A stretch of DNA of 64,000 bases from an uncultured Chloroflexia bacterium (GCA_963725875.1 CAVRZZ010000004.1:279758-343757), one strand, 5' to 3'; positions 14,963-30,976 are shown, counted from the first letter of the stretch. Translations and numbers: made by a program. Notes: generated by a model not told the origin, from the letters alone.

Positions 14963-15424
14963 GGGACCGGCGCGCACCACCGGGGCGTTCCGCCGGGTCC
15001 GCCGTCCCCGCCGCGTCCCTCGCAGCGTCCCTCGCCGGGTCGCCGCCGTGCCGCCGCCCCGCCCGCCGCCCCGTCCGCCGGGTGCCGGTTTGAGTTCAAC
15101 GCAACACCGGGTGCGCTCGGGGCGCCGGCGTGCGGGGAACCTGCGTTCAACGTGAGGATTCCCGCATCCGACGGCGCATCGAGCAGGAAGCTTGCGTTGA
15201 ACGTCGGTAATCCGGCAGCTCGGGCGCTCCGGCGCGTCGAGTTGTGGAGTTGGACTCAACGGGGCCAAGGTGGGCCCCGACCCTCGGCCCATGCCCGGCC
15301 CCAGCCCGGGCCCCCAGCCCGTCGTCGAGCAGCGGACCCGGCCGGATGGCCCTGTACCGCCGGGGGCGAGCGGCGAAAGATCGCGGTGAGCGCACCTACG
15401 GCAGGTGCAACATCGCAGGGCGTC

Positions 15425-16015
15425 ATGCGTTTCACCCGCATGGACAGCGTTTCCGCGCCGATGGCGTCGGACGAAGCGCCGCCCGCCCTCGAGCGGGCGC
15501 GCGTCGCCGGGCGCGCCGACGAGGTCGAGCTCGCGACGATCTACGAGGAGCGCCGAGGCGAGCTCCTGGCCTTCCTCGTCGGCATGACCCGCGATCCGTC
15601 CGTCGCGGAGGACCTCCTGCAGGAGACGTTCCTCCGGCTGGTCCGGGAGGCGCGCGCGGGCCGAATGCCCGAGCAGGTCCGGCCGTGGCTCTACCGGACC
15701 GCGGCCAACGCCGCGATCGACCGGGGTCGCCGGGGCGCGAGCCTGGCCCGCCTCCTGCCGCGCCTCCTCGATCGCTCCGACCCGCCACGGCCCGAGAGCG
15801 AGTTCCTGCGCTCCGAGCGCGACGCCGAGCTCCGCGCAGCACTCGGGAGGCTTGCCCCCGACCGGCGCGCCGCCCTGCTGCTCGCCGCCCGCGGCTTCAG
15901 TGGAACCGAGGTGGCGGGCCTCATCGGGCGCACCGACGGCGCAACGCGCACGCTCCTCTGCCGCGCCCGCCTGGAGCTGCGCGGCATCCTCGAGGCGACG
16001 GAGATCCGGCCATGA
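15425..16015 (+). CDS. ECF (sigma-70 family group IV) RNA polymerase sigma factor
   Basis: Region 2 'ELLAFLVGMTRDPSVAEDLLQETFLRLVREA' and region 4 'RRAALLLAARGFSGTEVAGLIGRTDGATRTLLCRAR'. The ATGA overlap with the downstream anti-sigma gene supports co-translation. Confidence 0.85.
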   Translation: MRFTRMDSVSAPMASDEAPPALERARVAGRADEVELATIYEERRGELLAFLVGMTRDPSVAEDLLQETFLRLVREARAGRMPEQVRPWLYRTAANAAIDRGRRGASLARLLPRLLDRSDPPRPESEFLRSERDAELRAALGRLAPDRRAALLLAARGFSGTEVAGLIGRTDGATRTLLCRARLELRGILEATEIRP

Positions 16016-18936
16016 GCACAACCGAGCGCCGCCTCCACGACCGCATCCTCGAGCTCGCCGCCGTGGCGCTCGACTTCCGCCTGGCGCCCGCCGAAGCAGC
16101 CGACCTCGAGGGCCACCTCGCCGCCTGCCCGACCTGCGCCCGGACGGCGGCGGCCCTGCGGGCGGACACGGCCGCCCTCCGACACCCCGCGTCCCTCCTC
16201 CCGTCGCGCCGGACCGACGACGCGGTCGCCGCGGCCATCGCCGGGCGCCGGGTCCGCTCCGGGCCGCGCGCGCTCGTTCTCGTGGCGGCCACCGCCCTGC
16301 TGCTCGTCGCGCTCCTGGGCGCGGCCGCCGTGGGGACCTTCCTCCTGCAGACCCGGCCGCCGATCGTCGAGGTCCCGTCGCCACCGGTCGTCGTCGTGAA
16401 CCCGAGCCCCTCGCCGGCACCCGTCTGGCAGACGGGCACCCTGCCGCCGATGTTCACCGGCGGGCTCGCGTATCCCGTCGCGATCGCCGCGGGCGAGACG
16501 GGGTTCGCCGCGGTCGGCCCGAGAGTGTTCCGCGACGTCGACACGCCCGCCGGCGGCACGGCCGGCGCGTGGCGATCGCGCGACGGCCTTGCGTGGGAGC
16601 CGGCGACAAGCGTTGCGGGCCTCGCGGTCGGCGACAGCCTCGACATCGACGACTACCCGGATCCGGGCCTCGTCGACGTCGCCTGGGGCCCAGCGGGGTT
16701 CGTCGCGGTCGGGATCGCACGGGAGTCGGTCGACCGGGTCGGGGCCGCGTGGCACTCGAGCGACGGCCTTACGTGGGTTCGCACGGACCTTCCGGAGCCG
16801 GCACGCGCCAGGCCCGCGGCAGTGACCTGGAGCGGATCGACGTACGTCATCGTCGGCGTCGTCGAGGAGGAGACGGCCCCGCGCGCGGTGGCGTGGCTCT
16901 CCACCGATGGCCGCTCTTGGCGACGCGTTCCGGACGCCGAGGCGTTCGACATCGGCGGCTACATCACCTACCCGTCGGGCCGCGGCTCGGGCGGCCCCGC
17001 CGACGTGACGGTGACCCAGGACGGCTCGCTCGTCGCTGTCGGGAGAACGTGCACCGGGACGACGAGCATGGACGACACCTATGCGTGCCGGCCGATCGTG
17101 ATCAGCTCGAGCGACGGCGAGGCGTGGAGGACCGAGCCCCTTCCCGACGTCTCCGGCGGCGGCATCTCGCTGCCGTCGTCCGTTGCAGCGACTGCAAAGC
17201 GCGTGGTCGCCGTCTCCGGCGGGGCGGTCGAGGGCGATCCGTCCGTCTTCATCCGCGACGACGCCGGGTGGCGCGTCGTCGATCCGGCGGGTGTGCCGAC
17301 ATTCGCCCGCATCGTCGCATTCGGTGATCGGTTTGTGGCCCTCGCGACCACTGCCACCGCGATCTCCCTGTGGACATCGTCCGACGGCGAGGCGTGGGCG
17401 CCCGTGTCGGGCATGCCGCAACCGCCGGACGTGACGAGCCTCCACGAGGTCGACCTCGTCGCCGCCGGCACGCAGGTCGTCATCGTCGGCTCGGCAGAGG
17501 TGGGCTCCACCGAAGGATGGAGCAGCTTCGCGATCGCCTGGTCCCCGCGCCAGGCCGAGCCCGCCACTCCGACGCCCTCACCGTCCGTCCAGCCGGCGCC
17601 GGCCTGGGTCCCCGCTCCAGGCGCGCTCCCGGTCGCGAGCGGCACCGTCCAGCTCGCCGCGGGTCCGGACGGGGGCACCTACGTCGTCGTGAGCTCGGCC
17701 CGCGATGGGGCGGCGGTCCAGCGCGATCGCAGCGTGCTCGCGCTGCTCGACCCGTCCGGGGAGCCGCGAACCGGGTGGCCCGTCGCGGCCGACGGCTGGG
17801 CCTGCGCGAGCCCGGACGGCAGTGCGTGGCCGCCGGAGGTCGCCGGCGACGGCTCCGTCACGGTGCTGTGCCGCTCGGGGGAGACCCCAGACGGGAGCGT
17901 TCGGACCAGCGCCTCCCGGTTCGACGCGGCGGGCAGGCTGCTCGCCAGCTGGTCGCACGACGGGGAGTCCTCGGGCCGCCCGCGGGTCGTCGACGGCCGA
18001 CTCCTCGTGATCGCCGACGAGGTGACGGAGGAGCAGGTCACCGGTGACAGCGGTCAGGCGGAGACCCGCTACACCGCCGCCTACTGGCTGGACGAGGTGG
18101 CCGCGGACGGCACTCGGCGATCCGGCGTGCGCCTGGACGTGGGCGAGGCTGGCTGGCCAGTCGTGCTGGGCCCCGACGGCACCGCCTATCACGTGGACAT
18201 GGAACAGGGCGTGATTACGGCGTTCGATCTCGACGGCCGGCTCGCCGGCTGGCCCGCGCGGCTCGACGGGAGCCTGTCGGCGCTCGGGTTTGGGCCCGAC
18301 GGCCGGGTCTACGTGACCGTGGCGCCGGCCGCAGCGGGTGCCTCCAGCCTGGTCGTGCTGGCGCGCGACGGCAGCACGGTGGCGAGATCGGACACCTTGC
18401 CCCTCGACGGCACGATCGCCTACAGCGGCGCCGGGCCGGGTGGCCGGCCGATGGCGCCGCTCGTCGCGGACGACGGCACGGCGTTCGTCATCGGCGAGGC
18501 CGCCGACCACACGGTCGTCTACGCGATCGACCCGTCGGGGGCGGTCAAGAGCGGCTGGCCGTATCGAGCGGACACTGCCGTGCAGTGGCAGGGGACCTGC
18601 CCGGCCGAGACCGCCGGTTGCGGCGTCTGGCGCGCGTCGCCCGCGGTGGGCCCGGACGGCATTGTCTACCTGCCACTTGCCGCGCCCGACGCGCAGGTCG
18701 GTGGCAGCGTTGCCGCGATCGGTCCCGACGGCCGGGCGATCGCCGGCTGGCCGATGCACCTCGCACGCCGGGGCGCCGAGTTCTGGGCGGCGGTGGCCGG
18801 GTCCGGTGACACGGCCTGGGCGGTTGCGGTCGAGCCGGAGGCCGGCGGGGGATCCTCGGCGACCGTCCTCGCGTTCGCGGCGGACGGAGCCGTTCGCTCC
18901 CGGACCACGGTGGTCGACCCCAAAGCCGGCAGCTGA
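16012..18936 (+). CDS. zf-HC2-type anti-sigma factor with a single TM helix and an approximately 870-aa extracytoplasmic beta-propeller-like domain
   Basis: N-terminal 'HLAACPTCA' zinc-finger anti-sigma motif. TM 'LVLVAATALLLVALLGAAAVG'. Long ectodomain with repeated 'DG..W'/'W....DG' motifs. Confidence 0.75.
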   Translation: MSTTERRLHDRILELAAVALDFRLAPAEAADLEGHLAACPTCARTAAALRADTAALRHPASLLPSRRTDDAVAAAIAGRRVRSGPRALVLVAATALLLVALLGAAAVGTFLLQTRPPIVEVPSPPVVVVNPSPSPAPVWQTGTLPPMFTGGLAYPVAIAAGETGFAAVGPRVFRDVDTPAGGTAGAWRSRDGLAWEPATSVAGLAVGDSLDIDDYPDPGLVDVAWGPAGFVAVGIARESVDRVGAAWHSSDGLTWVRTDLPEPARARPAAVTWSGSTYVIVGVVEEETAPRAVAWLSTDGRSWRRVPDAEAFDIGGYITYPSGRGSGGPADVTVTQDGSLVAVGRTCTGTTSMDDTYACRPIVISSSDGEAWRTEPLPDVSGGGISLPSSVAATAKRVVAVSGGAVEGDPSVFIRDDAGWRVVDPAGVPTFARIVAFGDRFVALATTATAISLWTSSDGEAWAPVSGMPQPPDVTSLHEVDLVAAGTQVVIVGSAEVGSTEGWSSFAIAWSPRQAEPATPTPSPSVQPAPAWVPAPGALPVASGTVQLAAGPDGGTYVVVSSARDGAAVQRDRSVLALLDPSGEPRTGWPVAADGWACASPDGSAWPPEVAGDGSVTVLCRSGETPDGSVRTSASRFDAAGRLLASWSHDGESSGRPRVVDGRLLVIADEVTEEQVTGDSGQAETRYTAAYWLDEVAADGTRRSGVRLDVGEAGWPVVLGPDGTAYHVDMEQGVITAFDLDGRLAGWPARLDGSLSALGFGPDGRVYVTVAPAAAGASSLVVLARDGSTVARSDTLPLDGTIAYSGAGPGGRPMAPLVADDGTAFVIGEAADHTVVYAIDPSGAVKSGWPYRADTAVQWQGTCPAETAGCGVWRASPAVGPDGIVYLPLAAPDAQVGGSVAAIGPDGRAIAGWPMHLARRGAEFWAAVAGSGDTAWAVAVEPEAGGGSSATVLAFAADGAVRSRTTVVDPKAGS

Positions 18937-19103: not shown

Positions 19104-19760
19104 TTGGCCGCCGCGGGACGCCCACAGCGCGGAGGGAGGCAGGCAGCGAGCACCGCCAGCCGGGCCCGGCTCCTTGACGCTGCCCGGGTTCTCTTCGCCG
19201 AGCGTGGCTACCACGCCTGCCGGGTGGCCGACGTCGCGCAGCGAGCAGGCATGGGCCCCGGCAACGTCTACTGGCACTTCGACTCGAAGGAAGCGGTCCT
19301 CGCGGCGATCCTGGCCGACGGTTTCGCCGCGCGCGAGGCGATGACCGCCGGGGTGGCCGACGAATACGGCCCGGCGCGCCGCAAGCTGGAGATCCTGGTG
19401 GACCGGACGATCGCCTTCTACACCGAGCAGGCCGCGTTTCTCCGCATCCTCGCCGGCATGTCGGGACCCGGCGGCCGGGAGCTCATCGCCTCGCTCGGGT
19501 TCAACGTGCCGGAGATCGAGCGGCGCAGCCGGGCGAACGTGCGCCGAGTCCTCGCCGAGGCGCGCTCGGAAGGCGCGATCGCCCCTGCGGATCCGGACCA
19601 GCTCGTCGCATTCTTCATGGCGTTCTTCGACGGCCTGCTGGTCGGATCGGACGGGCGCGGGTCCGACGGGCGCGGATCGGACGGGCGCGGGCCCGCCGTG
19701 CCGCAGGAGGGCGTTCGCGACACGGCCCTGCGCCTGCTGGGACATCGGCCCGCGGGGTGA
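19104..19760 (+). CDS. TetR/AcrR-family transcriptional regulator
   Basis: N-terminal HTH 'ARLLDAARVLFAERGYHACRVADVAQRAGMGPGNVYWHFDSKEAVL'. A (GSDGR)3 repeat sits near the C-terminus. TTG start assumed; the ORF table starts at 19038, inside the operator. Confidence 0.8.
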   Translation: MAAAGRPQRGGRQAASTASRARLLDAARVLFAERGYHACRVADVAQRAGMGPGNVYWHFDSKEAVLAAILADGFAAREAMTAGVADEYGPARRKLEILVDRTIAFYTEQAAFLRILAGMSGPGGRELIASLGFNVPEIERRSRANVRRVLAEARSEGAIAPADPDQLVAFFMAFFDGLLVGSDGRGSDGRGSDGRGPAVPQEGVRDTALRLLGHRPAG

Positions 19761-19768
19761 CCGTTGCT

Positions 19769-19812
19769 CGCGCCCCGGGCGAGGGAGCTCGCGCCCCGGG
19801 CGAGGGAGCGCG
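19769..19812. repeat. 22-bp tandem direct repeat (gcgccccgggcgagggagc-)x2 between tetR and the GH18 gene
   Basis: Read directly. Confidence 0.4.
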
Positions 19813-19897
19813 ATGGGCCGGAGAGGGAGCGCGAGGGGCCGCGTGGGGCCGCGAGGGGGCGTTTGACCGTTCGGGCGGCCTCGCCCACGCTTCCCGC

Positions 19898-21187
19898 ATG
19901 CCCCGACGACCGCCTGCCGCGATCGCCCTCGTCGTCGCGATCGCAGTCGCGACGCTGGCGGCCTGCGCGCCCGCGCCCGACGCAACGCCCGCGTCCCCGA
20001 CGACGGCCGGGCCGGACCCCTCGACTTCGGCCTCGGGGACGCCGCGACCGATCCCGGGCCACGAGGTGTACGGCTACGTGCCGTACTGGGAGATGGACGA
20101 CGGGATCGCGGCGCACCTGCGGTCGACGGACCTGACCACCCTCGCCCTGTTCAGCGTCACCAACACGCGCACCGGCGCGATCGACACGAAGCAGAACGGC
20201 TACCGCCGGATCGTCGGCGACGTGGGCCGCCAGCTGATCCGCGAAGCGCGCGAGGGCGGCGTCCGCGTCGAGCTCGTGTTCACGAGCTTCGGGCGCGAGC
20301 GCAACGACGGCTTCTTCGCCGACCTCGAGCTCCAGGACGCGACGATCGCTTCGCTCGTCGCCGTCGTGGCCGACCTCCGCCTCGACGGGGTCAACGTCGA
20401 CGTGGAGGGCCTCGACCCGCTGCAGGTGTCCGCGTACGGCGCGTTCGTGGGGCGGCTGCGCGCTGCGGTCGTGGCGGCCGGCCCCTCGGGCAGGGTGTCG
20501 GCAGCCACCCAGGCGAGCTTCGGTGGCGCGGCGATGGCGGCCGCCGCCGCGCAGGCCGGTGCCGACCGCATCTTCCTCATGGGCTACGACTACCGCGTGG
20601 ACCGCTCGGAGCCCGGGGCCATCGCGCCGCTCGACCGTCGCGATGGCGAGGAGAAGGACCTCGCCTGGTCGCTCGACCTGTACGCGGCGCTCGGCGTCCC
20701 GGTCGAGCGGACGCTCCTGGGCCTGCCGCTGTACGGCCGCTCGTGGCCGGTGACGGATCCGCTGCTCGGGGCGCCGGCGACGGGCCGCGGCGAGACCTGG
20801 GTTCCGCGCCGGAACCTCGAGATCCTGCGTGACCCCTCGATCATCCCCACCCGCGACGAGAGCGAGGTGGTCGAGCTCTACGCCCTCGCCTCCGACGGCA
20901 CGTCGTACCCGCCGGCGCCGTCCCCCGCCGGATCGCCGTTCGCAGGAGGCTCGCCGTCGCCCGCAGGCTCGCCTTCGAGCGGCGCGTCGTCGTCGCCCGC
21001 CTCTCCCGAGGATCGCACCTGGCGCGCGATCTACGTGGACTCGCCCGCCACCCTGGAGACGAAGCTCGCCCTTGCCAACGAGCGCGGGCTGGCGGGCGCC
21101 GGCTTCTGGGCCATCGGCTACGAGCGCGGGCTGCCCGGGTACCGGGAGCTCATCGCGCGCTTCGCCGCCGGCGACCCGATGAAGTAG
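19898..21187 (+). CDS. glycoside hydrolase family 18 (chitinase-like) lipoprotein
   Basis: Lipoprotein signal 'MPRRPPAAIALVVAIAVATLAAC'. GH18-type block 'LDGVNVDVEG' (catalytic DxxDxDxE-like). Ser/Pro-rich linker near the C-terminus. Confidence 0.8.
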   Translation: MPRRPPAAIALVVAIAVATLAACAPAPDATPASPTTAGPDPSTSASGTPRPIPGHEVYGYVPYWEMDDGIAAHLRSTDLTTLALFSVTNTRTGAIDTKQNGYRRIVGDVGRQLIREAREGGVRVELVFTSFGRERNDGFFADLELQDATIASLVAVVADLRLDGVNVDVEGLDPLQVSAYGAFVGRLRAAVVAAGPSGRVSAATQASFGGAAMAAAAAQAGADRIFLMGYDYRVDRSEPGAIAPLDRRDGEEKDLAWSLDLYAALGVPVERTLLGLPLYGRSWPVTDPLLGAPATGRGETWVPRRNLEILRDPSIIPTRDESEVVELYALASDGTSYPPAPSPAGSPFAGGSPSPAGSPSSGASSSPASPEDRTWRAIYVDSPATLETKLALANERGLAGAGFWAIGYERGLPGYRELIARFAAGDPMK

Positions 21188-21288: not shown

Positions 21289-22353
21289 TCAGCCGCCGTC
21301 GAGGACCTTGAGCAGGACCGCCGGATAGGGTTCCTGACCCTCGTCCGGGTGGGTGTTGCACACGACGACGTACTGGTTGCGGGTCATGACGGTGGTGCCC
21401 GTCTTGTCCACGCGCTCCTTGTCGGGAACCACCACTAGGGCCTCGCCCAGGCCATTCTCGCCGACACCATAGCGATCGAAGCCGGTCCCGGGGATCCTCA
21501 TCCACTCCGGGAACGGGAAGACGTGTTGTGTCTTGGCGTAGGCGAGGACCTGGTCCCACGACGTGCCGTCCAGCACCGGCGTGACGAGGAGGCCCGCCCC
21601 GATCGATCCCTTCTCGAACGCGGGTGCGTTGACCAGGGTGAAGGTGACGGCCGCCCCGCGCGGGATGGCGGTCGGGCCGGCGTAGGTGCACGTCTCGCCG
21701 TCGAAGGTGACCGCGGCGGAGATCGCCAGGGGGGTCGCCGTCGGTGCGGGCGTGGCCGTCGGCCCGGCCGTTGCGGGGGTTGCCTCCACCGTGAGCAGGA
21801 CGGCCGGATAGGGTTCCTGACCCTCGTCCGGGTGGGTGTTGCACACGACGACGTACTGGTTGCGGGTCATGACGGTCGTGCCCGTCTCGTCCACGCGCTC
21901 CTTGTCGGGAACCACCGATAGGGCCTCGCCCAGCCCCTGCTCGCCGTTTCCATAGCGGTCGCGGCCGGTTCCGGGGATCCTCATCCAGTCCGGGAACGGG
22001 AAGACGTGGCGCGTCTCGGCATAGGCGAGGACCTGCGCCCACGTCGTGCCGTCCAGCACGGGCGTGACGAGGAGGCCCGCCCCGATCGATCCCTTCTCGA
22101 ACGCGGGCGCGTTGACCAAAGTGAACGTCACGGCCGAGCCCCGCGGGACGACCGGCGGGCCGGCGTATGCGCACGTCTCGCCGTCGAAGGTGACCGTGGC
22201 GGAGATCGCCAGGGGGGTCGCCGTCGCGGCACCAGGGGTGGCTGCCGCCGGCGTTGCGGTCGCGGGCCCCAGAGTCGCAGCCGGCGAGGCACTCCCGCTG
22301 CAGGCCGCGACCACCAGCACGAGGGCTCCAGTGAGTGTCGTGAAGCGTCTCAT
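21289..22353 (-). CDS. lipoprotein of unknown function built from two tandem copies (about 88% aa identity) of an approximately 145-aa domain
   Basis: Signal 'MRRFTTLTGALVLVVAAC'. Repeat 1 'TPLAISATVTFDGETCAYAG...PYPAVLLTVEA' and repeat 2 'TPLAISAAVTFDGETCTYAG...PYPAVLLKVLDGG'. Confidence 0.75.
   Translation of the reverse strand: MRRFTTLTGALVLVVAACSGSASPAATLGPATATPAAATPGAATATPLAISATVTFDGETCAYAGPPVVPRGSAVTFTLVNAPAFEKGSIGAGLLVTPVLDGTTWAQVLAYAETRHVFPFPDWMRIPGTGRDRYGNGEQGLGEALSVVPDKERVDETGTTVMTRNQYVVVCNTHPDEGQEPYPAVLLTVEATPATAGPTATPAPTATPLAISAAVTFDGETCTYAGPTAIPRGAAVTFTLVNAPAFEKGSIGAGLLVTPVLDGTSWDQVLAYAKTQHVFPFPEWMRIPGTGFDRYGVGENGLGEALVVVPDKERVDKTGTTVMTRNQYVVVCNTHPDEGQEPYPAVLLKVLDGG
21293..22270. 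repeat. intragenic tandem duplication, approximately 485 bp x2, nearly identical at nucleotide level
   Basis: Long identical runs such as 'ggatagggttcctgaccctcgtccgggtgggtgttgcacacgacgacgtactggttgcgggtcatgacgg' occur at about 21330 and about 21815. Confidence 0.7.
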
Positions 22354-22479
22354 GACGCACCGCCTTCTCCTGCCTGTCGCCCCGGTCTCCGTTCGACCGG
22401 GCTTCGCCGCCGATCCTGCCGCCGGTCGGCTAGCGTCGGGCTAGGTGGCGGCTAGCCCGGACCGCCCGAGCGATCGCAT

Positions 22480-25400
22480 CTACTTCGTCCCCCGCCGGAC
22501 CTCCTCGATGTCGCCGAGCACCCCGCCCAGGCTGACCTCCCCCCACGTCAGGTAGGTCAGCGTCGCCTGCGCGAATGCCGCCGCGAGCGGGGTCGGCATG
22601 AGATCGGAGGCTGCGACGCGGAAGGTCGCCGCGCGCAGGGCGCTCCGCAGACGTTCGCCTTCCCGACCCGTGACCTCGTCCAGCCGGACCGCCGGGTCCG
22701 TCGGGCCCGTCGGCCAGATGCCGGCCGGTACGAGGGCCGTCGTCGCCGCGGCGGCGAACTGGTCGTCGAGCAGGAGGTCGACGAAGCGGCGCACCTCGGG
22801 GCGGTCGTGGAAGACCACCACCGTGAAGGCCCGCCCCCGGACCTCGTCGGCGTACGCCGGGTCGCCCGCCGGGAAGGGGAAGGCTGCGAGGGTGGCGGAC
22901 CCGCCCGCGGGCCATGCCGCCCGATCCGTCCCGCCCGCGAGGTGAAGCCAGCATTCGGGTGGGTCGACGAACATGGGCCACGCGGCGATCGCCTCCGGTG
23001 TACGGAGGGCGGAGGCCACGCCGCCGAGCACGTAGCCGTCCCGGAATGCGAGGTTGCCGAGCGCCAGGAACGCGCTCCGCACCGGGTCGCCTGTGAAGGA
23101 TTCCCTGCCCGCGGCCAGCGCTTCGAAGGTGCGGGGACCGGCCGTGTGGAGCACGACCTCCTCGATGAATGCGACGCCGCCTGCTCCGGAGTCGGACCCG
23201 GCCTCGATGCCGAGGCACCAGGGCGTTCGACCCTCGGCGACCATGCGTTCGGCGAGCTTCGCCAGGTCGTCCGAGGACCGAGGGACGGCGTACCCGGCGC
23301 GCTCGAATGCCACCTTCGGGTACCAGACCAGGCTCTCCGCCTCGGTTGCGAATGGCGCGCCGAACAGGCGGCCGTCGGCGGCCGGCCAGGTGCCGTCGGC
23401 GCCGACGGTCCCCAGTCGCACGAGGTAGTCGCCGGCGATCGCGCGGAGCCGTGCGACGTCGACGAAGCCGGACATGTCCACCAGCAGGCCGGCCCGCGCC
23501 AGCTCGGCCACGAGGCCCGGCCGCGAGACGATCGCGACGTCGGGCAGATCTCCCGCCGCGACACGCGCCTCGAGATCGCCGTCTGCGGCGGTCGCCCCGG
23601 TCACGTCGATGCCCGTCTCGTTCTCGAACGCGGAAACGACGGGGGCCAGGTCCACCTGCAGCTGCGAAACCGCCTCCACCCGCGACCCGGCGAGCGATCG
23701 GCTCGCGAGGCGCTCGACGGGAACGACGCCCGATGCCGTGTACACGTCCTCCACGGACGAGCCGGCGGCCGACGTCGTCGAGCATGCCTCGCGATGGAGG
23801 TACGTTCGGCACTCGCCGGGCGTGAGACCACGGCCGGCTGCCGTCGCCGCCAGGGTCATGAGCAGCTCCGGTGCCAGCAGCATGACGCCGCGCGGGTCGC
23901 CCGGGCCGGCTCGGACGGCAACGGGCGCCGCGCTTGCCGGATACGCGATGTGGGACGCCTGGAGCGCCCAGTGCAGGGCGTCCATGGCCTCCTCGACGAC
24001 GTAGCCCCGGTCGGACGTCGCGTCGGCGGCCTGCCATGCCAGCAGCAGGCTGAGCTGTGGATCCGTGCCCAGGTTCCCGATCGAGGCGGCCGCCAGCTCG
24101 CGGGCAGAGGCGAGCGCCCCCTTCTCCCGGGCGGCCTCGCCCTGCCCGTACACGACGACCGACAGCGACGTCGCGACGAGAGCCGCGATGGCCAGCACCG
24201 CCACGAGGGCACGCAGACGGGTCGTCGCGCGGCGCTCGAGTGCGCGCTCGTGCGCGACCTGGGTCGCGGCCGCCTCGTCCAGCCGGCGCCGCTCTGCGTC
24301 GCTCGCGTCGAGCAGCTGGCGCTCCGGGAGGTCCAGGCGCAGGTCGGTCGAGGCAGCCCACGACGCGAAGAGACCAAGCCGGCTCCCGGAGAGCAGGTAG
24401 CCCGGGTCGCGCCCCGAACGGATCCAATCGGCTGCCGCGTCCGCCAGTCGGCGGCGCGTCCAGAGATCCTCGCGCGCCTCCTCGATCCACCCGCCCAGGC
24501 GCGGCCAGCGGGCCAGGAGCGCCTCGTGGGCGACCAGGACGAACGGCTCGCCCGTCACGGCGTCGCGGTCGAACGACAGGAGGCGCCCACGGCCAAACGC
24601 GTCGAGCGCCTCGTCGATGGGCCGTTGATCGTCGGCGAGGGTGCGGAGCTCCGATCGTGCGACCCGCCGGGCCGTCGGTTCGCCGGACTCGCCCGGCACG
24701 ACGAGGCGAAGGAAGGCCTGGCGGGAGATCTCGCGGCCCTCGGCATCCAGGCCGGCGTAGACGTCATCGGCCCGACGGCCGAGCGCCCCCAGCACGCCGC
24801 CGACCGCCGCATACGCCTCGCGCGTCAGACGCTGCCCGTCGCTCCGCTCGAAGAGCTCGGTGAGGGCGTACTGGAGGAGGGGGAGCTCCCCGGGCTGACG
24901 GGCGACATCGGCAATCACCTCGGTCGCGAGTCCCGGTTCAAGGTCGACCCCGACCGACCCCGCCGGTCGCACGATGGCGCGCTCCAGCTCGTCGCGCGTG
25001 AGGGGCGTGACCAGCTCCGTGCCGGCGCGGACCAGCTCCCCGAGCCCGGGGGAGCGGAGCGGACGATCGAGGAAGTCCGCGCGCAACGTGGCGACGACCA
25101 GGAGCCGGCTCTCACGGGCCGAGAGTGCCTCGACGAGCCCCGCGAGGAAGCTCGTCCGCTCGGCCTCGTCGTCGACGAGCGACCAGAGCTCCTCGATCTG
25201 GTCGACCACGAGCACCAGGTGCGCAACGTCATCGGGAAGGGCTAGGGCGACTGCGCCGGCAAGGTCGTGACGCAGCCGTTCGGCGTCCTCGTGCGGGGCG
25301 CCAGACCCAGCCGCGCCGAGAGCCGCCGCGAGCTCGCGGAACGGCCGAGCCCCCGGCAGCATCACGGCGATCGGCCAACCCTCGGAGCCCGCCAGCGCGC

Positions 25401-26382
25401 CGCTGCGGATGGCCGGGACCAGGCCGGCCCGGACGGCGCTGGACTTGCCGCTGCCGCTCGGGCCGACGACGACGAGGAGCCGGCCGGCTCGGGCCACGTC
25501 CCCCAGGCGCTCGACCAGGCGGGCGACGAGCGCCTCCCGGCCGAAGAAGTCGGGGCTGTCCGCCTCCGAGAACGGCCGCAGGCCCTTGTACGGGTTGCGG
25601 GCCCTGCGCTGCCGCGCCGGCACCTCGAGTCGCCGGTCCTGGCGCAGGATCCAGCCCTCGAGCTGCTGGAGCTCGGGGCCCGGGTCGATGCCGAGCTCGC
25701 CACCCAGCATGCGGCGACCTTCGCCGTAGGTCCGGAGCGCCTCCGCCTGCCGCCCGGCCCGATAGAGCGCGACCATGAGCTGGCCGCGCAGGCGTTCGCG
25801 CAGGGGTTCCTGCGCGACGAGCGCCTGGAGCTCGTCGATCACGTCGGGATGCCGGCCAAGCGCGAGGTCGGCCTCCATCCGGTCCTCCAGGGCCCGCAGG
25901 TGGAGCTCGTCCAGGCGCCGGATCTCGGGCTGGACGAACGACTCGTCGGCCAGCTCGGCATACGCCGCGCCGCGCCACAGTGCCAGAGCCTCGTTGAAGT
26001 GCGTGCGGGCCGTCTCGGGATCGCCGGCGAGGACGGCACGCCCCTGCGAGGCCAGCCGCTCGAAGCGGACCGCATCGATCCGGACCGGCTCCACCCGCAG
26101 GACATAGCCGGCCGGCTCCGTCGCCAGGACTCCGTTCAATGAGCCCCGCGACCGTCCCGGGTCCAACGCGTCGCGGAGCCGGGAGACGTGGAAGGCGACG
26201 GTCTTGGCGCCGCTGTCCGGGGGCTCGTCGCCCCACAGCTCGTCGATGATCCGCTCGGCGGAGACGACGCGGTTCGCGTGGATGACGAGGAACGCGAGCA
26301 GGGCCAGCTGCCGGCCTGAGGCGACCGTGAGCCGCCGGCCGTCCTCGACGACCTCGACCGCGCCCAGGACGCGGAACTCCAT
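22480..26382 (-). CDS. one-component membrane regulator: SARP/OmpR-type winged helix + BTAD + NB-ARC/STAND P-loop ATPase + TM helix + C-terminal extracytoplasmic solute-binding (SBP_bac_1-like) domain
   Basis: 'MEFRVLGAVEVVEDGRRLTV...' is SARP/AfsR-like. Walker A 'VVVGPSGSGKSS'. TM 'LRALVAVLAIAALVATSLSVVVY'. C-terminal 'LVWYPKVAFERAGYAVP...TPWCLGIEAG...AAFPFPAG' resembles sugar ABC substrate-binding proteins. 1300 aa. Confidence 0.85.
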   Translation of the reverse strand: MEFRVLGAVEVVEDGRRLTVASGRQLALLAFLVIHANRVVSAERIIDELWGDEPPDSGAKTVAFHVSRLRDALDPGRSRGSLNGVLATEPAGYVLRVEPVRIDAVRFERLASQGRAVLAGDPETARTHFNEALALWRGAAYAELADESFVQPEIRRLDELHLRALEDRMEADLALGRHPDVIDELQALVAQEPLRERLRGQLMVALYRAGRQAEALRTYGEGRRMLGGELGIDPGPELQQLEGWILRQDRRLEVPARQRRARNPYKGLRPFSEADSPDFFGREALVARLVERLGDVARAGRLLVVVGPSGSGKSSAVRAGLVPAIRSGALAGSEGWPIAVMLPGARPFRELAAALGAAGSGAPHEDAERLRHDLAGAVALALPDDVAHLVLVVDQIEELWSLVDDEAERTSFLAGLVEALSARESRLLVVATLRADFLDRPLRSPGLGELVRAGTELVTPLTRDELERAIVRPAGSVGVDLEPGLATEVIADVARQPGELPLLQYALTELFERSDGQRLTREAYAAVGGVLGALGRRADDVYAGLDAEGREISRQAFLRLVVPGESGEPTARRVARSELRTLADDQRPIDEALDAFGRGRLLSFDRDAVTGEPFVLVAHEALLARWPRLGGWIEEAREDLWTRRRLADAAADWIRSGRDPGYLLSGSRLGLFASWAASTDLRLDLPERQLLDASDAERRRLDEAAATQVAHERALERRATTRLRALVAVLAIAALVATSLSVVVYGQGEAAREKGALASARELAAASIGNLGTDPQLSLLLAWQAADATSDRGYVVEEAMDALHWALQASHIAYPASAAPVAVRAGPGDPRGVMLLAPELLMTLAATAAGRGLTPGECRTYLHREACSTTSAAGSSVEDVYTASGVVPVERLASRSLAGSRVEAVSQLQVDLAPVVSAFENETGIDVTGATAADGDLEARVAAGDLPDVAIVSRPGLVAELARAGLLVDMSGFVDVARLRAIAGDYLVRLGTVGADGTWPAADGRLFGAPFATEAESLVWYPKVAFERAGYAVPRSSDDLAKLAERMVAEGRTPWCLGIEAGSDSGAGGVAFIEEVVLHTAGPRTFEALAAGRESFTGDPVRSAFLALGNLAFRDGYVLGGVASALRTPEAIAAWPMFVDPPECWLHLAGGTDRAAWPAGGSATLAAFPFPAGDPAYADEVRGRAFTVVVFHDRPEVRRFVDLLLDDQFAAAATTALVPAGIWPTGPTDPAVRLDEVTGREGERLRSALRAATFRVAASDLMPTPLAAAFAQATLTYLTWGEVSLGGVLGDIEEVRRGTK

Positions 26383-26572: not shown

Positions 26573-28198
26573 TCAGCGGCTGAGCGGCACCCCCGCCATC
26601 CGCGCGGCGACGGCGCTGCGGCGCACCTTGCGGGTGTGCGTGCGCGGGAAGTCGGGCTCCGGGAACGGCGCCCGACCCGTGATCCGCTGGTGGACGGCCA
26701 GCCGCCGGTTCGCCGCGCCAACGGCGGCCGAGAGCGCGGTCTCCTCGTCCGCCGGCTGCTCGCTGAACGCGGCCCCCGGGCGATAGGCGAGCGCGATGCG
26801 ACCCGGTTCCGCCTCGTAGACGACCGGCTCCACGAGGCCCTCCTCGATCAGCGCCGCCTCGACGTCCTCGGGATGGACGTTCATCCCGTTCGGCAGGGCG
26901 ATGAGCGAGCGCGTCCGCCCGATCAGGCGCAGCGAGCCCGACGCGTCGACCTCGCCGATGTCGCCCGTCCGGTACCACCCGTCGGGCGTGAACGCCGCAG
27001 CCGTCGAATCCGGGTCCTGCCAGTACCCCGCGAAGACCGACGGCCCCCGGACGACCACCTCGCCGTCGGGCTCGACGCGGATCTTCAGCGGCGGGAGGGT
27101 CCAGCCGACCCGGCCGGGCGGCGTGCGCCCGCGGAAGTTGGTGGTGACGAGACCCGCCTCGGTGGAGCCGTACCCCTGGACCACCTCGACGCCGAGGGCC
27201 TCCCAGTTGCGTTGGAGGGTCGGCGAGAGGTGCGCGGCCGAGCAGAGCACGAGGCGCAGCTCGCCGCCCAGCGCGGCGTGCACCTTCTTGAACAGGCGTC
27301 GCCGGAGCTCCATCGGGAGGTACGGCGCGAAGCGGAGCGCACGGCGGAAGGTCGTACCGCTGCCGGAGCGGTCCGCTTCGCGGCGGATGGCGCCGAAAAG
27401 CAGCTCGAGGACCTGCGGCACGACCACGAGCGCGGTGGCGCGGTGGCCCTTGATCGCCGCCGCGATGACGTCCGGGCGGAGCGTGGTGATGTACTCGGTC
27501 TCGGCGCCCGCGGCGGCCGCGTACACCAGCCCGGCGACCTGCTCCATGATGTGGGACAGCGGCAGGATCGAGACGAACCGGTTGGCGCCCGCCGGGATCG
27601 CCGCCAGGCAGCGCTCGGTCGAGGCCAGCAGCATCGGCTGGGTGATGGTGACGCCCTTCGGGTTGCCGGTCGAGCCCGAGGTGCAGAGGATCTCGATCGG
27701 CTCGTCCGGCGGCGCGGGCGCGCGGGTCGCGAGGGCGGCCACCGCCCCGGACGGCGCCGGGTCGACGAGGTCGTCGAGGTCCATGACCGGCAGGTGCGCG
27801 AGGGCCGGGATCGTCACCGGCTCCAGCGTCGCCCCGGTGCCCAGCAGGATCGCCGTCGGCACCGTGAGCGCCGAGATCCGCTCGACCGTGTCGGGCGTCA
27901 TGCGCGTGTCGAGCGGCACGAGGATCACGTTTGCCCGGGCGGCCGCGAAGAGCGCCGCCGCGAACCCGGGCCCGGGTGCCCCCTGCACCAGGACGCGCTC
28001 GCCGGGCTGGAGGGCCGCCGCGAGCCGGGCCGCGGCGTTCTCGACGGCCGTCCCGAACTCCGTGAACGTCAGCGACTGCTCCCGCGTGGTCGACGTGCGC
28101 ACGCCGAGGAAGGGGGCGGAACCCTGCCTGGCGATCGCGCGCTCCAGCATCTGCGGAAGCGTGGGGGGCAGCGAGATCACGGGTGCGGCTGCGGACAC
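26573..28198 (-). CDS. AMP-dependent acyl-CoA synthetase/ligase (FadD-like)
   Basis: AMP-binding motif 'ILCTSGSTGNPKGV', 'GYGSTEAG', 'GWYRTGDIG', and C-terminal conserved Lys 'THTRKVRR'. The start is uncertain: GTG at 28198 or ATG at 28150. Confidence 0.8.
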   Translation of the reverse strand: MSAAAPVISLPPTLPQMLERAIARQGSAPFLGVRTSTTREQSLTFTEFGTAVENAAARLAAALQPGERVLVQGAPGPGFAAALFAAARANVILVPLDTRMTPDTVERISALTVPTAILLGTGATLEPVTIPALAHLPVMDLDDLVDPAPSGAVAALATRAPAPPDEPIEILCTSGSTGNPKGVTITQPMLLASTERCLAAIPAGANRFVSILPLSHIMEQVAGLVYAAAAGAETEYITTLRPDVIAAAIKGHRATALVVVPQVLELLFGAIRREADRSGSGTTFRRALRFAPYLPMELRRRLFKKVHAALGGELRLVLCSAAHLSPTLQRNWEALGVEVVQGYGSTEAGLVTTNFRGRTPPGRVGWTLPPLKIRVEPDGEVVVRGPSVFAGYWQDPDSTAAAFTPDGWYRTGDIGEVDASGSLRLIGRTRSLIALPNGMNVHPEDVEAALIEEGLVEPVVYEAEPGRIALAYRPGAAFSEQPADEETALSAAVGAANRRLAVHQRITGRAPFPEPDFPRTHTRKVRRSAVAARMAGVPLSR

Positions 28199-28508
28199 GG
28201 TCGACGGGCCTCGGTTGGGCGACCGCCGGGAGTGCCGAGCGGCAGGGTGGGAGGGGCCGGATGGCTCTCGGCGGCTGGGACGAGGAGAGCATATCCGCAT
28301 GGAGCCTCGGGCGCCGGCGGACGCCACGGCGCGAGGGAGGGTGGCATGGAACAGGCGAACGACACGCCCGGCGACGGGCTTCGCAGGGAGGTGGTACCAG
28401 TCCGCAGGCTCGCCGTACGCGATGAGCGAGCCCATCCTGCGCCGTCCACCGTCCGCCGGACGCTACCGGGCGCGCCGACTGACGCCCCGCGCAGCGCGGC
28501 TGCGGTCG

Positions 28509-28997
28509 TCAGCCCGCCCGGACGGGCGCGGCGCCCTCCTCGACCGGGAGCTCGATGATCGTCCGGATCTGCTCCGGCGGCGTCTCCGGCTCGCTCAGGT
28601 AGACCTCGCGGGGCGGCCCCGCGGCGGCGAACCCGTGGGCCTCGATCCAGGCCGTGATCTCGGCGTAGGCTTCCCCGACCGTGTCGTACGGACCGACGTG
28701 GAGAAGCGTCGCGAACGTACCGGCGGGGAGCTCCTGGAGCTGCCAGCCGGCCGGCGGCTCGACCGGCCGGGCCACCGGCGCGCAGATCTCGATGTCGAAC
28801 GGCTCGCCCGACGCCGGCGTCCCGTGGTAGATGACGAACGGCGGGCCGTCCGGCGCGGCTCCACGCGCACCGAGATGCCCGTAGACCTCGCCGAAGGCGG
28901 GCCCCATCACGCTGCCGATGTCGGCCAGCGTCACCGCGAACCACTTCGACACGACCAGGGCGGCCTCGCGCCGCCCGACCTTCACCTCGCGTCCCAT
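28509..28997 (-). CDS. GyrI-like/AraC-effector-binding small-molecule-binding domain protein
   Basis: 162 aa. 'YHGTPASGEPFDIEICAPV...TLLHVGPYDTVGEAYAEITAWIEAHG' matches the GyrI-like fold. Confidence 0.6.
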   Translation of the reverse strand: MGREVKVGRREAALVVSKWFAVTLADIGSVMGPAFGEVYGHLGARGAAPDGPPFVIYHGTPASGEPFDIEICAPVARPVEPPAGWQLQELPAGTFATLLHVGPYDTVGEAYAEITAWIEAHGFAAAGPPREVYLSEPETPPEQIRTIIELPVEEGAAPVRAG

Positions 28998-29072
28998 CCT
29001 GCGCGCCTCCTCGCCATCCCGCGCATGCTGACTCGCGGGCCGGCGACCATCCTGCGCGCCTCCCGCCCATCC
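28991..29072. repeat. 26-bp direct repeat (ccatcctgcgcgcctcc(t/c)cgcccatcc) x2 spanning the start of the GyrI-like gene and its upstream region; a second short repeat 'ggcggtcggcagt' x2 follows
   Basis: Read directly in the divergent GyrI-like/htrA intergenic region. Confidence 0.35.
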
Positions 29073-29380
29073 TGCCAGAGCCCTTCGACCCAGCGGTCGG
29101 CAGTTCGGTGGACTGGCGGTCGGCAGTCGGCGATCCGGCGGATCGTTGGCGCTTCCGGCGCCGATCGGCGCTGCCTGGTTGCCTCCCGCGTCGCCCGTTG
29201 CGAGCCGGCGACAAAGCGTCCGGTTGCGATCCGGCGCCCACCCGGCGAAGAAACCGCAACGTCAAGGAACCTTCACCACCTCGGCGGGCTCCCGTTCACC
29301 CGACATGACGATGCTGCACGACGACACCCCGGGCCCCAAGCACGTTCCTGTCGAGATCCCGCCCGGGTGGAAGGAAACCG

Positions 29381-30976
29381 ATGACCGACATGCAGCCCTC
29401 CTCGACCCCCGATCTCCCGCGGCCCCCCGCAGGTGCTCCGGGCCCCTCGTTCGACGCCGCACTCGCCGCGCAGGTCACGCCGGAGGCGACGCCCGTGGCG
29501 ACCCCCCCTGCGACGCCCCTGACCACCCCACCGGCAGACGGCGCCGAGGTCACCCAGCCGGTGCGATGGACGCCGGCGACCTCCACCACCGAGACCGCCG
29601 ATCCGCGCGTCGAGCCCCCCGCTCCCGCGCCCTGGACCGCCCCGCCGCCCGATTCCGTCGCGCCCCAGCGCGCCCGCCGCGCGGTCGGGCCGGGGTTCGT
29701 CATGGCCGCCGTCCTCGCGACCGCGGTCCTCACCGCCGGTGGGACGTACGTCGCCGTGACCGCCGCGAACGGCGACACGTCGCTCCCCGCCGCACCGACC
29801 GGGGTCCAGACCGGGAACCAGGCAACGCCCACCCCCGCGACCGCCACGCCCGCCCCCGTGACCGCGGCGCCCGCCCCCGTCGCCAACGAAGGCTCCGTCG
29901 TCGAGGTCGTCAAGGCCGTCAGCCCGGCGGTGGTCACCATCGTCGCCGAGAGCGCCCAGGGGACGGGCACCGGCTCCGGCGTGATCTTCGACGCGAACGG
30001 CCTGATCCTCACGAACCGCCACGTCGTGTCGGGCAACCCCACCAAGCTGACGGTCAAGCTCAAGGACGGCCGCACGCTCGACGGGACGATCTACGGCATC
30101 GACACGCTCACCGACCTCGCCATCGTCAAGGTGAACGAGACCGGCCTCCCGACCGCCGCGATCGGCGACTCGTCGACGATCCAGGTGGGCCAGCAGGCGA
30201 TCGCGATCGGCAGCCCGCTCGGCGAGTTCACCGACTCGGTGACGACCGGGATCATCTCGGCGATCGGCCGGAGCATCGACGTCGAGGATGGCACGACGCT
30301 CTCGAACCTCCTCCAGACCGACACCGCCATCAACCCCGGCAACAGCGGCGGCCCGCTGCTCGACGGGAGCGGCAAAGTGATCGGCATCAACACCGCCATC
30401 GCCGGCAACGCCGAAGGAATTGGGTTCGCCATCCCGGTCAACATCGCCCGGCCGCTGCTCGCCCAGGCGTCCGCCGGCCAGCCGCTGGCCCGCGCGTGGC
30501 TCGGGATCCGCTTCCAGACGATCGATCCGGAGCTCAAGGCGGCGGCAAACCTGCCGGTCGACAACGGGGCGTGGATCCCGTCCTCTACCGCACTCAGCCA
30601 GGGGAACGCCGGGACGGAGACCCCGGCTCCCAGCCAGGACCCGAACTTCGGCCTGACACCCGACCAGCTCAACGAGCTCTTCAAGCAGTTCGGCATCGAC
30701 CCGAACCAGGTCCCGCAGGGCCAGCAGGGCCAGGGCCAGGGCCAGGCGGTGACCCCGCAGGATCCCATCGTCGCGGGCAGCCCGGCCGAGGCGGCCGGCC
30801 TCGCCGCCGGCGACATCATCACCGCGGTGGACGGCACGACGCTCGACGCGGCGCACCCGCTCGACCTCGTGATGAGCCAGCTCGCCCCGGGCGAGACGGC
30901 AAGCCTCGACGTCTTCCGCAACGGCCAGTCGATGAAGATCTCCATCACCCTGGGGACGCGTCCCGCGGACCTGTAG
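29381..30976 (+). CDS. htrA: HtrA/DegP-family trypsin-like serine protease with PDZ domain, membrane anchored
   Basis: GGAAGGA RBS. Catalytic triad context 'TNRHVV' (His), 'DLAIVKV' (Asp), 'GNSGGPL' (Ser). TM 'VMAAVLATAVLTAGGTYVAV'. C-terminal PDZ 'GSPAEAAGLAAGDIITAVDG'. Confidence 0.9.
   Translation: MTDMQPSSTPDLPRPPAGAPGPSFDAALAAQVTPEATPVATPPATPLTTPPADGAEVTQPVRWTPATSTTETADPRVEPPAPAPWTAPPPDSVAPQRARRAVGPGFVMAAVLATAVLTAGGTYVAVTAANGDTSLPAAPTGVQTGNQATPTPATATPAPVTAAPAPVANEGSVVEVVKAVSPAVVTIVAESAQGTGTGSGVIFDANGLILTNRHVVSGNPTKLTVKLKDGRTLDGTIYGIDTLTDLAIVKVNETGLPTAAIGDSSTIQVGQQAIAIGSPLGEFTDSVTTGIISAIGRSIDVEDGTTLSNLLQTDTAINPGNSGGPLLDGSGKVIGINTAIAGNAEGIGFAIPVNIARPLLAQASAGQPLARAWLGIRFQTIDPELKAAANLPVDNGAWIPSSTALSQGNAGTETPAPSQDPNFGLTPDQLNELFKQFGIDPNQVPQGQQGQGQGQAVTPQDPIVAGSPAEAAGLAAGDIITAVDGTTLDAAHPLDLVMSQLAPGETASLDVFRNGQSMKISITLGTRPADL

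Follow-up and report, generated by a model that had tools for sequence, protein, structure and literature searches.

We analyzed a 64,000-nucleotide (nt) stretch of DNA from an uncultured Chloroflexia bacterium (GCA_963725875.1 CAVRZZ010000004.1:279758-343757; hereafter, the window), which has a G+C content of ~72–75% and encodes a 1300-amino-acid (aa) regulator on the minus strand. The open reading frame (ORF) starts with ATG, the distribution of G+C over its codon positions is typical of a real gene (0.90 G+C at third codon positions), and its N-terminus (MEFRVLG...) aligns with those of homologues in a 25-sequence alignment. An identical protein (P0001) occurs in public data. The regulator is a new variant assembled from known parts: an N-terminal module of the family named after antibiotic regulatory proteins of Streptomyces (SARPs), an ATPase of the class of signal transduction ATPases that have numerous domains (STAND), a single predicted transmembrane (TM) helix, and a C-terminal domain of the solute-binding protein (SBP) type. 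It is followed by a predicted SARP box and a lipoprotein gene. The features of the locus, in window positions, are as follows.

22480–26382, minus strand: whole gene of the 1300-aa SARP-nSTAND1-TM-SBP regulator (ORF and translation)
26101–26319, minus strand: OmpR-type winged-helix DNA-binding domain, aa 22–94 (Pfam Trans_reg_C, 48.5 bits)
25645–26079, minus strand: BTAD transcriptional activation domain, aa 102–246 (Pfam PF03704, E 4.5e-47, full profile 1–146)
24403–25593, minus strand: nSTAND1 STAND NTPase, aa 264–660 (Pfam PF20703, E 1.7e-114, profile 1–378 of 379)
25438–25464, minus strand: Walker A motif GPSGSGKSS, aa 307–315
24151–24207, minus strand: single predicted TM helix, core aa 726–744, LVAVLAIAALVATSLSVVV (Kyte-Doolittle; Arg-rich segment just before)
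23686–24150, minus strand: predicted extracytoplasmic juxtamembrane domain, ~aa 745–898 (AlphaFold2 [AF2] model of aa 760–1300, invariant residues)
22483–23685, minus strand: family-1 (carbohydrate-type) solute-binding domain, ~aa 899–1300 (Pfam, PDB matches, AF2, Foldseek)
22427–22455, minus strand: predicted SARP box, three direct heptamers with an exact 11-bp period (repeat search and matrix scan)
22413–22418, minus strand: -10-like hexamer CAGGAT, following the third heptamer at a distance of 8 nt (fixed 8-nt spacing in 10/10 loci)
22379–22402, minus strand: GC-rich stem-loop in the predicted 5' untranslated region (UTR), GCCCGGTC-gaacgga-GACCGGGGC, ~10 nt after the -10
21289–22353, minus strand: lipoprotein gene, 354 aa, lipobox LVVAAC, two tandem cupredoxin-like domains (translation; predicted target)

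The N-terminal part of the regulator has the domain order of the SARP family, with an OmpR-type winged helix followed by the BTAD. Residues 2–369 match AfsR chains of cryo-electron microscopy complexes (8k60, E 4.1e-45) and residues 2–249 match EmbR (2fez, E 8.4e-36); the AfsR equivalog model of NCBIfam (NF053617) reached 214 bits, below its cut-off of 1430, and covered aa 2–309 only. A preliminary description of this DNA had proposed a 1300-aa ORF with SARP modules, a Walker A motif GPSGSGKSS, and an NB-ARC ATPase. Translation and Pfam bore out the first two, whereas the NB-ARC label gave way to nSTAND1: the Pfam scan (E <= 1) lists no NB-ARC family for the regulator and assigns PF20703 at 383.8 bits (cut-off 27.1), with the Walker A and B motifs of the clade intact. 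We therefore rejected an NB-ARC identity. No TPR family scored above threshold in the regulator, the only TPR matches in Pfam being sub-threshold ones inside the BTAD. Invariant positions of the ATPase among 25 homologues are G307, S309, G310, G312, K313, S314, S315, D394, Q395, E398, R434, and H619. D394, Q395, and E398 probably belong to the Walker B region, and H619, in the sequence VAHEAL, might be the counterpart of the MHD/HD switch that was recently exploited in AfsR (bioRxiv 10.64898/2026.09.02.748808).

Only one segment of the whole protein exceeds a Kyte-Doolittle value of 1.9 (aa 726–744; 2.72 over 19 aa), and the regulator has no N-terminal signal sequence. A strong hydrophobic segment occupies the equivalent post-ATPase position in 118 of 120 homologues, the other two being truncated. 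Among the 107 homologues with a single predicted segment, the 15 flanking residues contain on average 5.4 Lys/Arg on the N-side vs. 1.6 on the C-side, and the N-side count is the higher in 106 of them. The sole invariant cysteines in the 25-sequence alignment (C858, C867, C1056, and C1144) are all C-terminal to the helix, which is the pattern expected of disulfides outside the cytoplasm. Because the single helix, the positive-inside bias, and the post-helix cysteines agree, we predict that the N-terminus is inside and the C-terminus outside (N-in, C-out), with the membrane between the two ends and the SBP domain in the extracytoplasmic location of its family. 

The C-terminal region meets the profile and the fold of family-1 SBPs. 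Residues 914–1207 match SBP_bac_1 (60.4 bits, cut-off 26; Pfam), and the AF2 model of aa 760–1300, built from 46 aligned sequences, is two-lobed, with a predicted local distance difference test (pLDDT) score of 92.8 and a predicted template modelling score (pTM) of 0.92. Foldseek found 950 matches to this model in the PDB at E <= 1e-3, and nearly all of the best 50 are carbohydrate-binding proteins of ATP-binding cassette (ABC) importers. The top match is the glucose-binding protein ppGBP (5xpj; E 2e-17, template modelling score [TM-score] 0.80); AcbH (3oo6) has a TM-score of 0.81, and further matches include the chitin-oligosaccharide binder NagB, xylo-oligosaccharide binders, and RafE. Sequence search alone against the PDB returned RafE (E 1.8e-7) and NagB2 (E 2.6e-5). 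Invariant residues of the solute-binding domain are W1020, W1055, C1056, C1144, and the DRPE motif at 1193–1196. The first ~140 residues past the helix form a separate juxtamembrane domain, in which helices and strands are mixed and C858 and C867 are invariant, and their motif ARELAAAS..NLGxDPxLSLLLA is common to WD40-type nSTAND1 proteins, where it also follows the helix. The preliminary description had placed a single helix before a sugar-type SBP domain outside the cell, coupled to a STAND activator inside. The Pfam match, the confidence of the model, its similarity to ppGBP, and the predicted topology all support that account.

Downstream of the regulator gene, the predicted SARP box begins 25 nt beyond the stop codon and consists of CTAGCCG (22,455–22,449), CTAGCCC (22,444–22,438), and CTAGCCG (22,433–22,427) on the minus strand. 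The triple repeat is unique in the window at 0 mismatches, with 0.02 occurrences expected at up to 3 mismatches. The promoter region of the lipoprotein gene shows no -35 consensus and no sigma-70 consensus promoter. The geometry of three heptamers with an 11-bp period, 8 nt, and a -10-like element (nAnnnT, usually (C/G)AGGAT) is identical in 10 of 10 aligned loci, and it holds where the repeats themselves differ (CTGTCC in L003, CAAAGCG in L165). Using leave-one-out scans, in which the position matrix was built without the tested locus, we found that the window site scores 33.1 bits vs. 11.5 bits for the runner-up of 127,916 positions, and that the site ranks first in nine of the ten loci and second in L003. 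Given that next best score, autoregulation or further copies of the box in the window were rejected. In published SARP promoters, the direct repeats are spaced by 11 or 22 bp and the 3' one is 8 bp away from the -10 (PMC10936776), a rule that the predicted site matches exactly. The box lies within ~30–70 bp of the regulator stop codon in every box-bearing locus, which may hold the target near the place where the protein is inserted co-translationally into the membrane.

The gene behind this putative promoter encodes a lipoprotein with a lipobox, a Pro/Thr/Ala linker, and a ~130-aa domain containing VTFDGxxCxYxGP and a second invariant Cys; the domain is doubled in the window and single in the homologues. 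The lipoprotein has no Pfam, NCBIfam, or PADLOC match, and its family is small (52 clusters even by profile search, all unnamed). It adjoins the regulator in every locus whose context was read. The AF2 model is a beta-sandwich (pLDDT 80.8), and its best PDB matches, which are weak, are the cupredoxins AcoP (E 4e-3, TM-score 0.44) and EfeO. A canonical copper cupredoxin was rejected, given only two invariant Cys, no His/Cys/His/Met set, and weak fold matches.

Gene tables were compiled for ten SARP-type homologous loci (44–77% identity), and two more, L008 and L009, were read only downstream of the regulator. Neighbors vary by locus, and the constant one is a small co-directional gene 88–155 nt downstream of the regulator. 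One-domain lipoproteins are encoded directly downstream in L001–L005, L164, L165, and L166, and, by DNA reading, in L008 and L009. Altogether, 11 of 12 SARP-type loci (49–88% identity), whose other neighbors are mostly different, have both the box and the lipoprotein gene; both are absent from one cyclase-output relative (L006), one kinase-output relative (L007), and seven Actinomycetota loci read downstream. Because of the box geometry and this conserved pairing, which is absent from the two loci read with other outputs, the lipoprotein gene is very probably a direct target of the regulator. This partner was missed in the preliminary description, which had pointed upstream, to a co-directional acyl-CoA ligase gene (AMP-binding; 26,573–28,435). 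That gene is present and co-directional as described, but it is not a conserved partner: among the loci read, L002 alone again has a ligase upstream, with a divergent gene between it and the regulator. Since the linkage is not conserved across homologous loci, a functional link between regulator and ligase was rejected.

Several further observations concern the promoter region. The all-site matrix, run over 1.1 Mb of fetched loci, exceeds 25 bits only at the known sites and at one extra site found in L002 (7868–7910, minus strand) and L009 (at 2904, minus strand). This second triple repeat (25.3 bits; CTTGCCG, CTCACCG, and CAAACCG, then 8 nt and GAACGT) precedes a divergent gene whose product is a small membrane protein with a single pass and four SEYLRxIARxW-like repeats, which suggests that the regulon may exceed one member in some genomes. 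Differences in the recognition helix follow box differences only loosely. A stem of 6–7 bp, whose sequence varies, occurs at the same position in the 5' UTR of seven lipoprotein-gene loci and in that of the second target in L002. Its single-sequence fold z-scores are modest (+1.1 to -5.6), and RNAalifold predicted no structure on MAFFT-aligned 5' UTRs, whose alignment is poor; the stem-loop may be an mRNA stabilizer or a regulatory element.

Taken with its domain content, the regulator is probably a single-pass (N-in, C-out), membrane-bound one-component transcription activator. Outside the cell, the family-1 domain would bind a small ligand, with a mono- or oligosaccharide the most likely class and our default reading. 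Closure of the binding domain would then be transmitted via the juxtamembrane domain and a helix that is probably continuous through the membrane. The nSTAND1 ATPase would swap ADP for ATP and self-associate like other STAND switches, aligning the SARP domains side by side on the three 11-bp-phased heptamers. The occupied heptamers would stand in for a -35 element at a promoter that lies shortly past the stop codon of the regulator gene itself. RNA polymerase would be recruited as for AfsR, and the gene for the secreted cupredoxin-like lipoprotein would be transcribed.

Several results weigh against this interpretation. The ectodomain is just 12–20% identical to characterized binding proteins, and the cognate ABC importer associated with family-1 SBPs is missing, in that neither the window nor any of the homologous loci read has binding-protein-dependent ABC permease genes next to the regulator; nor is an obvious sugar-catabolic operon linked to it there. 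The leave-one-out scores are weak at L003 (8.1 bits) and L164 (10.1 bits), one SARP-type locus (L162, 44% identity) has neither the box nor the lipoprotein gene, and the predicted box could be bound by another SARP encoded elsewhere in the genome. With regard to the ligand, weak similarities to NagB2 (E 2.6e-5) and NgcE (E 3e-4) hint at chito-oligosaccharides, none of them conserved across the family, and the window (19,757–21,187, plus strand) and L002 (16,907–18,178, minus strand) each have a GH18 (chitinase-like) gene at a distance of a few kb from the regulator. The GH18 gene is not conserved in the other homologous loci, and together with the weak NagB2/NgcE similarity it is a faint hint of a chito-oligosaccharide ligand.

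A rather unlikely alternative, though the strongest we weighed, is that the lipoprotein is a co-component, such that the ectodomain docks it as ToxR or VtrA does ToxS or VtrC, making the lipoprotein both target and co-sensor in a feedback arrangement. The lipoprotein gene comes after the regulator gene in 11 of the 12 SARP-type loci and is missing at the cyclase- and kinase-output loci read, its tiny family (52 clusters) keeps to the regulator wherever context was read, both the ectodomain and the lipoprotein are predicted to be extracytoplasmic, no transporter genes point to a nutrient ligand, and there is an established class of membrane-bound winged-helix regulators whose periplasmic partner is encoded downstream (PMC9214523). 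However, the lipoprotein gene has its own predicted activator-type promoter and no translational coupling, features more in line with a target than with an obligate partner. Moreover, the same ectodomain clade serves cyclase, kinase, and other outputs without the lipoprotein, and the ectodomain has the full two-lobed binding-protein fold of its relatives that bind ligands.

Membrane-bound transcription factors and anti-sigma factors are known to undergo regulated proteolysis, and here, too, the membrane form could be inactive until the signal triggers a cut near or within the membrane, so that the released soluble SARP-STAND part acts like a cytoplasmic AfsR-type regulator. Release of this kind would remove the problem of a membrane-anchored oligomer reaching DNA, and a gene for an HtrA-like Trypsin-PDZ protease lies nearby in the window (29,381–30,976) and in L002. 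We consider it improbable, given that the protease gene occurs in only these two of the loci read, that no site-2 protease gene is linked, and that the target promoter lies within ~30–70 bp of the regulator stop codon in every box-bearing locus, which favors a regulator acting while tethered. ToxR and CadC act while membrane-bound. Least probable is an nSTAND1 conflict or immunity sensor, in which the ectodomain would detect an invader- or kin-derived molecule and the SARP part would drive a defense response: nSTAND1 was defined in predicted counter-invader systems (PMC8195603), one ectodomain relative is fused to a caspase domain (P0284), and ATPase relatives carry kinase or WD40 domains, but no PADLOC defense family matches the regulator or the lipoprotein, the neighboring genes are mostly housekeeping or unrelated with no recognized defense system in the loci read, the output domain is that of a transcription factor whose target would be a small lipoprotein gene, and not a toxic effector, and the ectodomain has a nutrient-type binding fold. 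A defense-system identity was rejected on the lack of a PADLOC match.

Compared to AfsR and the other large Streptomyces SARPs (SARP, NB-ARC, and TPR), the membrane-bound activator proposed here shares the N-terminal OmpR-type winged helix and BTAD, a central STAND-class ATPase, and, by prediction, an operator of 11-bp-phased repeats whose 3' repeat lies 8 bp from the -10. It differs in having nSTAND1 and not NB-ARC, no detected TPR sensor arm, and a membrane helix with a predicted extracytoplasmic SBP sensor in place of the cytoplasmic sensor arm. In addition, its host is most likely a member of Chloroflexota, and no biosynthetic cluster is in view. SARP classifications recognize only small, medium, large (NB-ARC-TPR), and SARP-LAL types (PMC10972967; bioRxiv 10.64898/2026.09.02.748808); one of these two sources calls SARPs exclusive to actinobacteria, and neither mentions membrane forms. 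Our full-text literature searches returned nothing relevant on membrane-bound SARPs or SARP-STAND-SBP fusions. The automatic JGI name, ‘DNA-binding SARP family transcriptional activator/ABC-type glycerol-3-phosphate transport system’, indicates that the fusion has been seen by pipelines and not interpreted.

The layout also recalls ToxR, CadC, and VtrA, which likewise have a cytoplasmic N-terminal OmpR-type winged helix, one TM helix, and an extracytoplasmic sensor, as well as a small extracytoplasmic protein encoded immediately downstream (the co-component theme, PMC9214523). The likeness is one of layout only. In the regulator, a BTAD and a STAND ATPase, together ~630 aa, separate the DNA-binding domain from the membrane, the sensor is a binding-protein fold and not a ToxR-type periplasmic domain, and the downstream gene has its own predicted promoter. 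Outside the winged helix we found no ToxR/CadC homology, the CadC model giving a chance-level match (E 0.18, aa 13–52).

In E. coli MalT, a STAND ATPase couples ligand binding to oligomerization and activation of transcription. MalT is wholly cytoplasmic, senses maltotriose by its own sensor arm, and has a LuxR-type C-terminal DNA-binding domain. The regulator resembles MalT, which has been cited as a non-immune STAND (PMC13581612), in that a STAND ATPase would link a (probably carbohydrate) ligand to activation; it differs in sensing outside the cell via a transporter-type binding domain, and the two are likened at the level of the STAND class only. The nSTAND1 conflict proteins described by Kaur et al. 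in 2021 share the same Pfam ATPase and the order of N-terminal output, central ATPase, and C-terminal sensor (PMC8195603). The regulator differs from them in that its output is a transcription factor and not a toxin or adaptor, and in its lack of a defense context or PADLOC match: we found no conflict-type effector or adaptor domains and no defense island, the neighbors encoding acyl-CoA ligase, GyrI-like, HtrA, GH18, and TetR proteins. Finally, SBPs in signaling have been reviewed as stand-alone stimulators of chemoreceptors, kinases, and cyclases, with a single indirect case of a Ser/Thr kinase (PMC8050422), and in that review we found no mention of fused SBPs, BTAD, Trans_reg_C, or one-component regulators. 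As with stand-alone signaling SBPs and the SBP-like sensors of BvgS, a transporter-type fold would perceive signals outside the cytoplasm, although, unlike the stand-alone proteins, the family-1 domain of the regulator is covalently fused. The combination of an outside SBP sensor, a helix, a STAND ATPase resembling those of nucleotide-binding leucine-rich repeat (NLR) proteins, and a SARP head is not described for SARP or STAND regulators.

The architecture had been called rare. The scan of 185,579 species genomes gave a handful of full-length relatives among the matches listed, and the scan of metagenome contigs gave almost none among the matches listed; however, the same architecture occurs in >100 metagenomic clusters at 90% identity. 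It is common in Chloroflexota soil metagenomes, yet absent from SARP classifications. Named homologues are from metagenome-assembled genomes (MAGs) labeled ‘Candidatus Limnocylindrales’, ‘Chloroflexi’, and ‘uncultured Chloroflexia’ (88% identity to MFD00032.bin.1.157), with remoter relatives in Acidimicrobiia and other Actinomycetota. Accordingly, the regulator lacks the actinobacterial host and secondary-metabolite cluster associated with SARPs, since its closest named homologues are Chloroflexota MAGs and its neighbors are of the housekeeping type.

A single helix directly follows the ATPase in 13 of 13 nSTAND1 relatives examined, an arrangement for which we found no description in the literature consulted on the family. 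Ectodomains of these relatives comprise family-1 SBPs, Bmp/PnrA-type domains (L017, L012), and WD40 propellers (L036, L092, L021), and their outputs comprise SARP, adenylate cyclase (P0091 and others), and Ser/Thr kinase (P0114, L036). The cyclase and kinase outputs of some relatives suggest that the transmembrane chassis is reusable. Two proteins from Chloroflexia and Acidimicrobiia (L017 2950–6228; L012 1697–5440) have a SARP-nSTAND1-TM arrangement with a Bmp/PnrA-type (nucleoside-type) ectodomain, which makes them a second, independent case of a binding protein joined to the same chassis. Large WD40 arrays follow a strong single helix in two Ser/Thr kinase-nSTAND1 proteins (L036 2113–6600; L092 834–5657) and in an nSTAND1 protein without a detected N-terminal domain (L021 2365–6519). 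If the topology rule holds, these propellers would lie outside the cytoplasm, an unusual location for them.

In a library with one representative per 50%-identity cluster, we counted 187 relatives of the ectodomain at E <= 1e-30. Among the best 150 of these 187, 72 include the juxtamembrane part and 26 resemble ordinary secreted binding proteins (400–520 aa, ~31–38% identity). Close relatives of the solute-binding domain (P0261, P0262, P0264, P0273, P0281, and P0284) are fused to other signaling modules, including Ser/Thr kinases, an MscS-cNMP protein, and a caspase-TPR protein (P0284); P0261 is a short SARP-like protein without a STAND ATPase in which only the BTAD scored. It is conceivable, and we propose it tentatively at somewhat short of even confidence, that these proteins form an undescribed class of membrane-spanning NLR-like (STAND) receptors with varied ectodomains for signals outside the cytoplasm, a single helix, an oligomerizing ATPase, and interchangeable outputs. 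In this class, the SARP version would be a self-contained cassette of sensor, regulator, promoter, and target, with the promoter kept adjacent so that the tethered protein reaches DNA.

Turning to the remaining genes of the window, the acyl-CoA ligase and GyrI-like genes lie upstream of the regulator, with GH18, TetR, and HtrA genes farther out. Upstream of the ligase (28,509–30,976) are the gene for the GyrI-like, small-molecule-binding protein and a divergent gene for the HtrA-type Trypsin-PDZ protease. The ligase, GyrI-like, and HtrA trio recurs in L002 alone, the only locus that repeats the upstream neighbors of the window. An ORF at 15,244–18,936 (plus strand, 1230 aa) has no Pfam match at E <= 1e-3, and its first ~250 codons are Arg/Pro/Gly-rich and look like a wrong frame. 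The real start of this gene is probably near 16,012 (MSTTERRLHDRILE...CPTC...), from which the product resembles an anti-sigma factor of the zf-HC2 type that carries a membrane helix and a large outer domain.

STAND/NLR proteins are generally regarded as receptors of the cytosol, and SARPs as soluble regulators of antibiotic production in actinobacteria. The regulator described here would extend both ideas, the first to an NLR-like switch driven from outside the cell and the second to a SARP working at the membrane in Chloroflexota. By their named homologues, the hosts are Limnocylindria-type soil bacteria with few studied regulators. The predicted sensor, switch, DNA-binding head, operator, and target gene lie within 5.1 kb and so constitute a directly testable circuit, and this 5.1-kb piece is suited to studies of the ectodomain ligand, of transmembrane STAND control, and of SARP operator recognition. 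The transmembrane chassis could also serve biosensor design.

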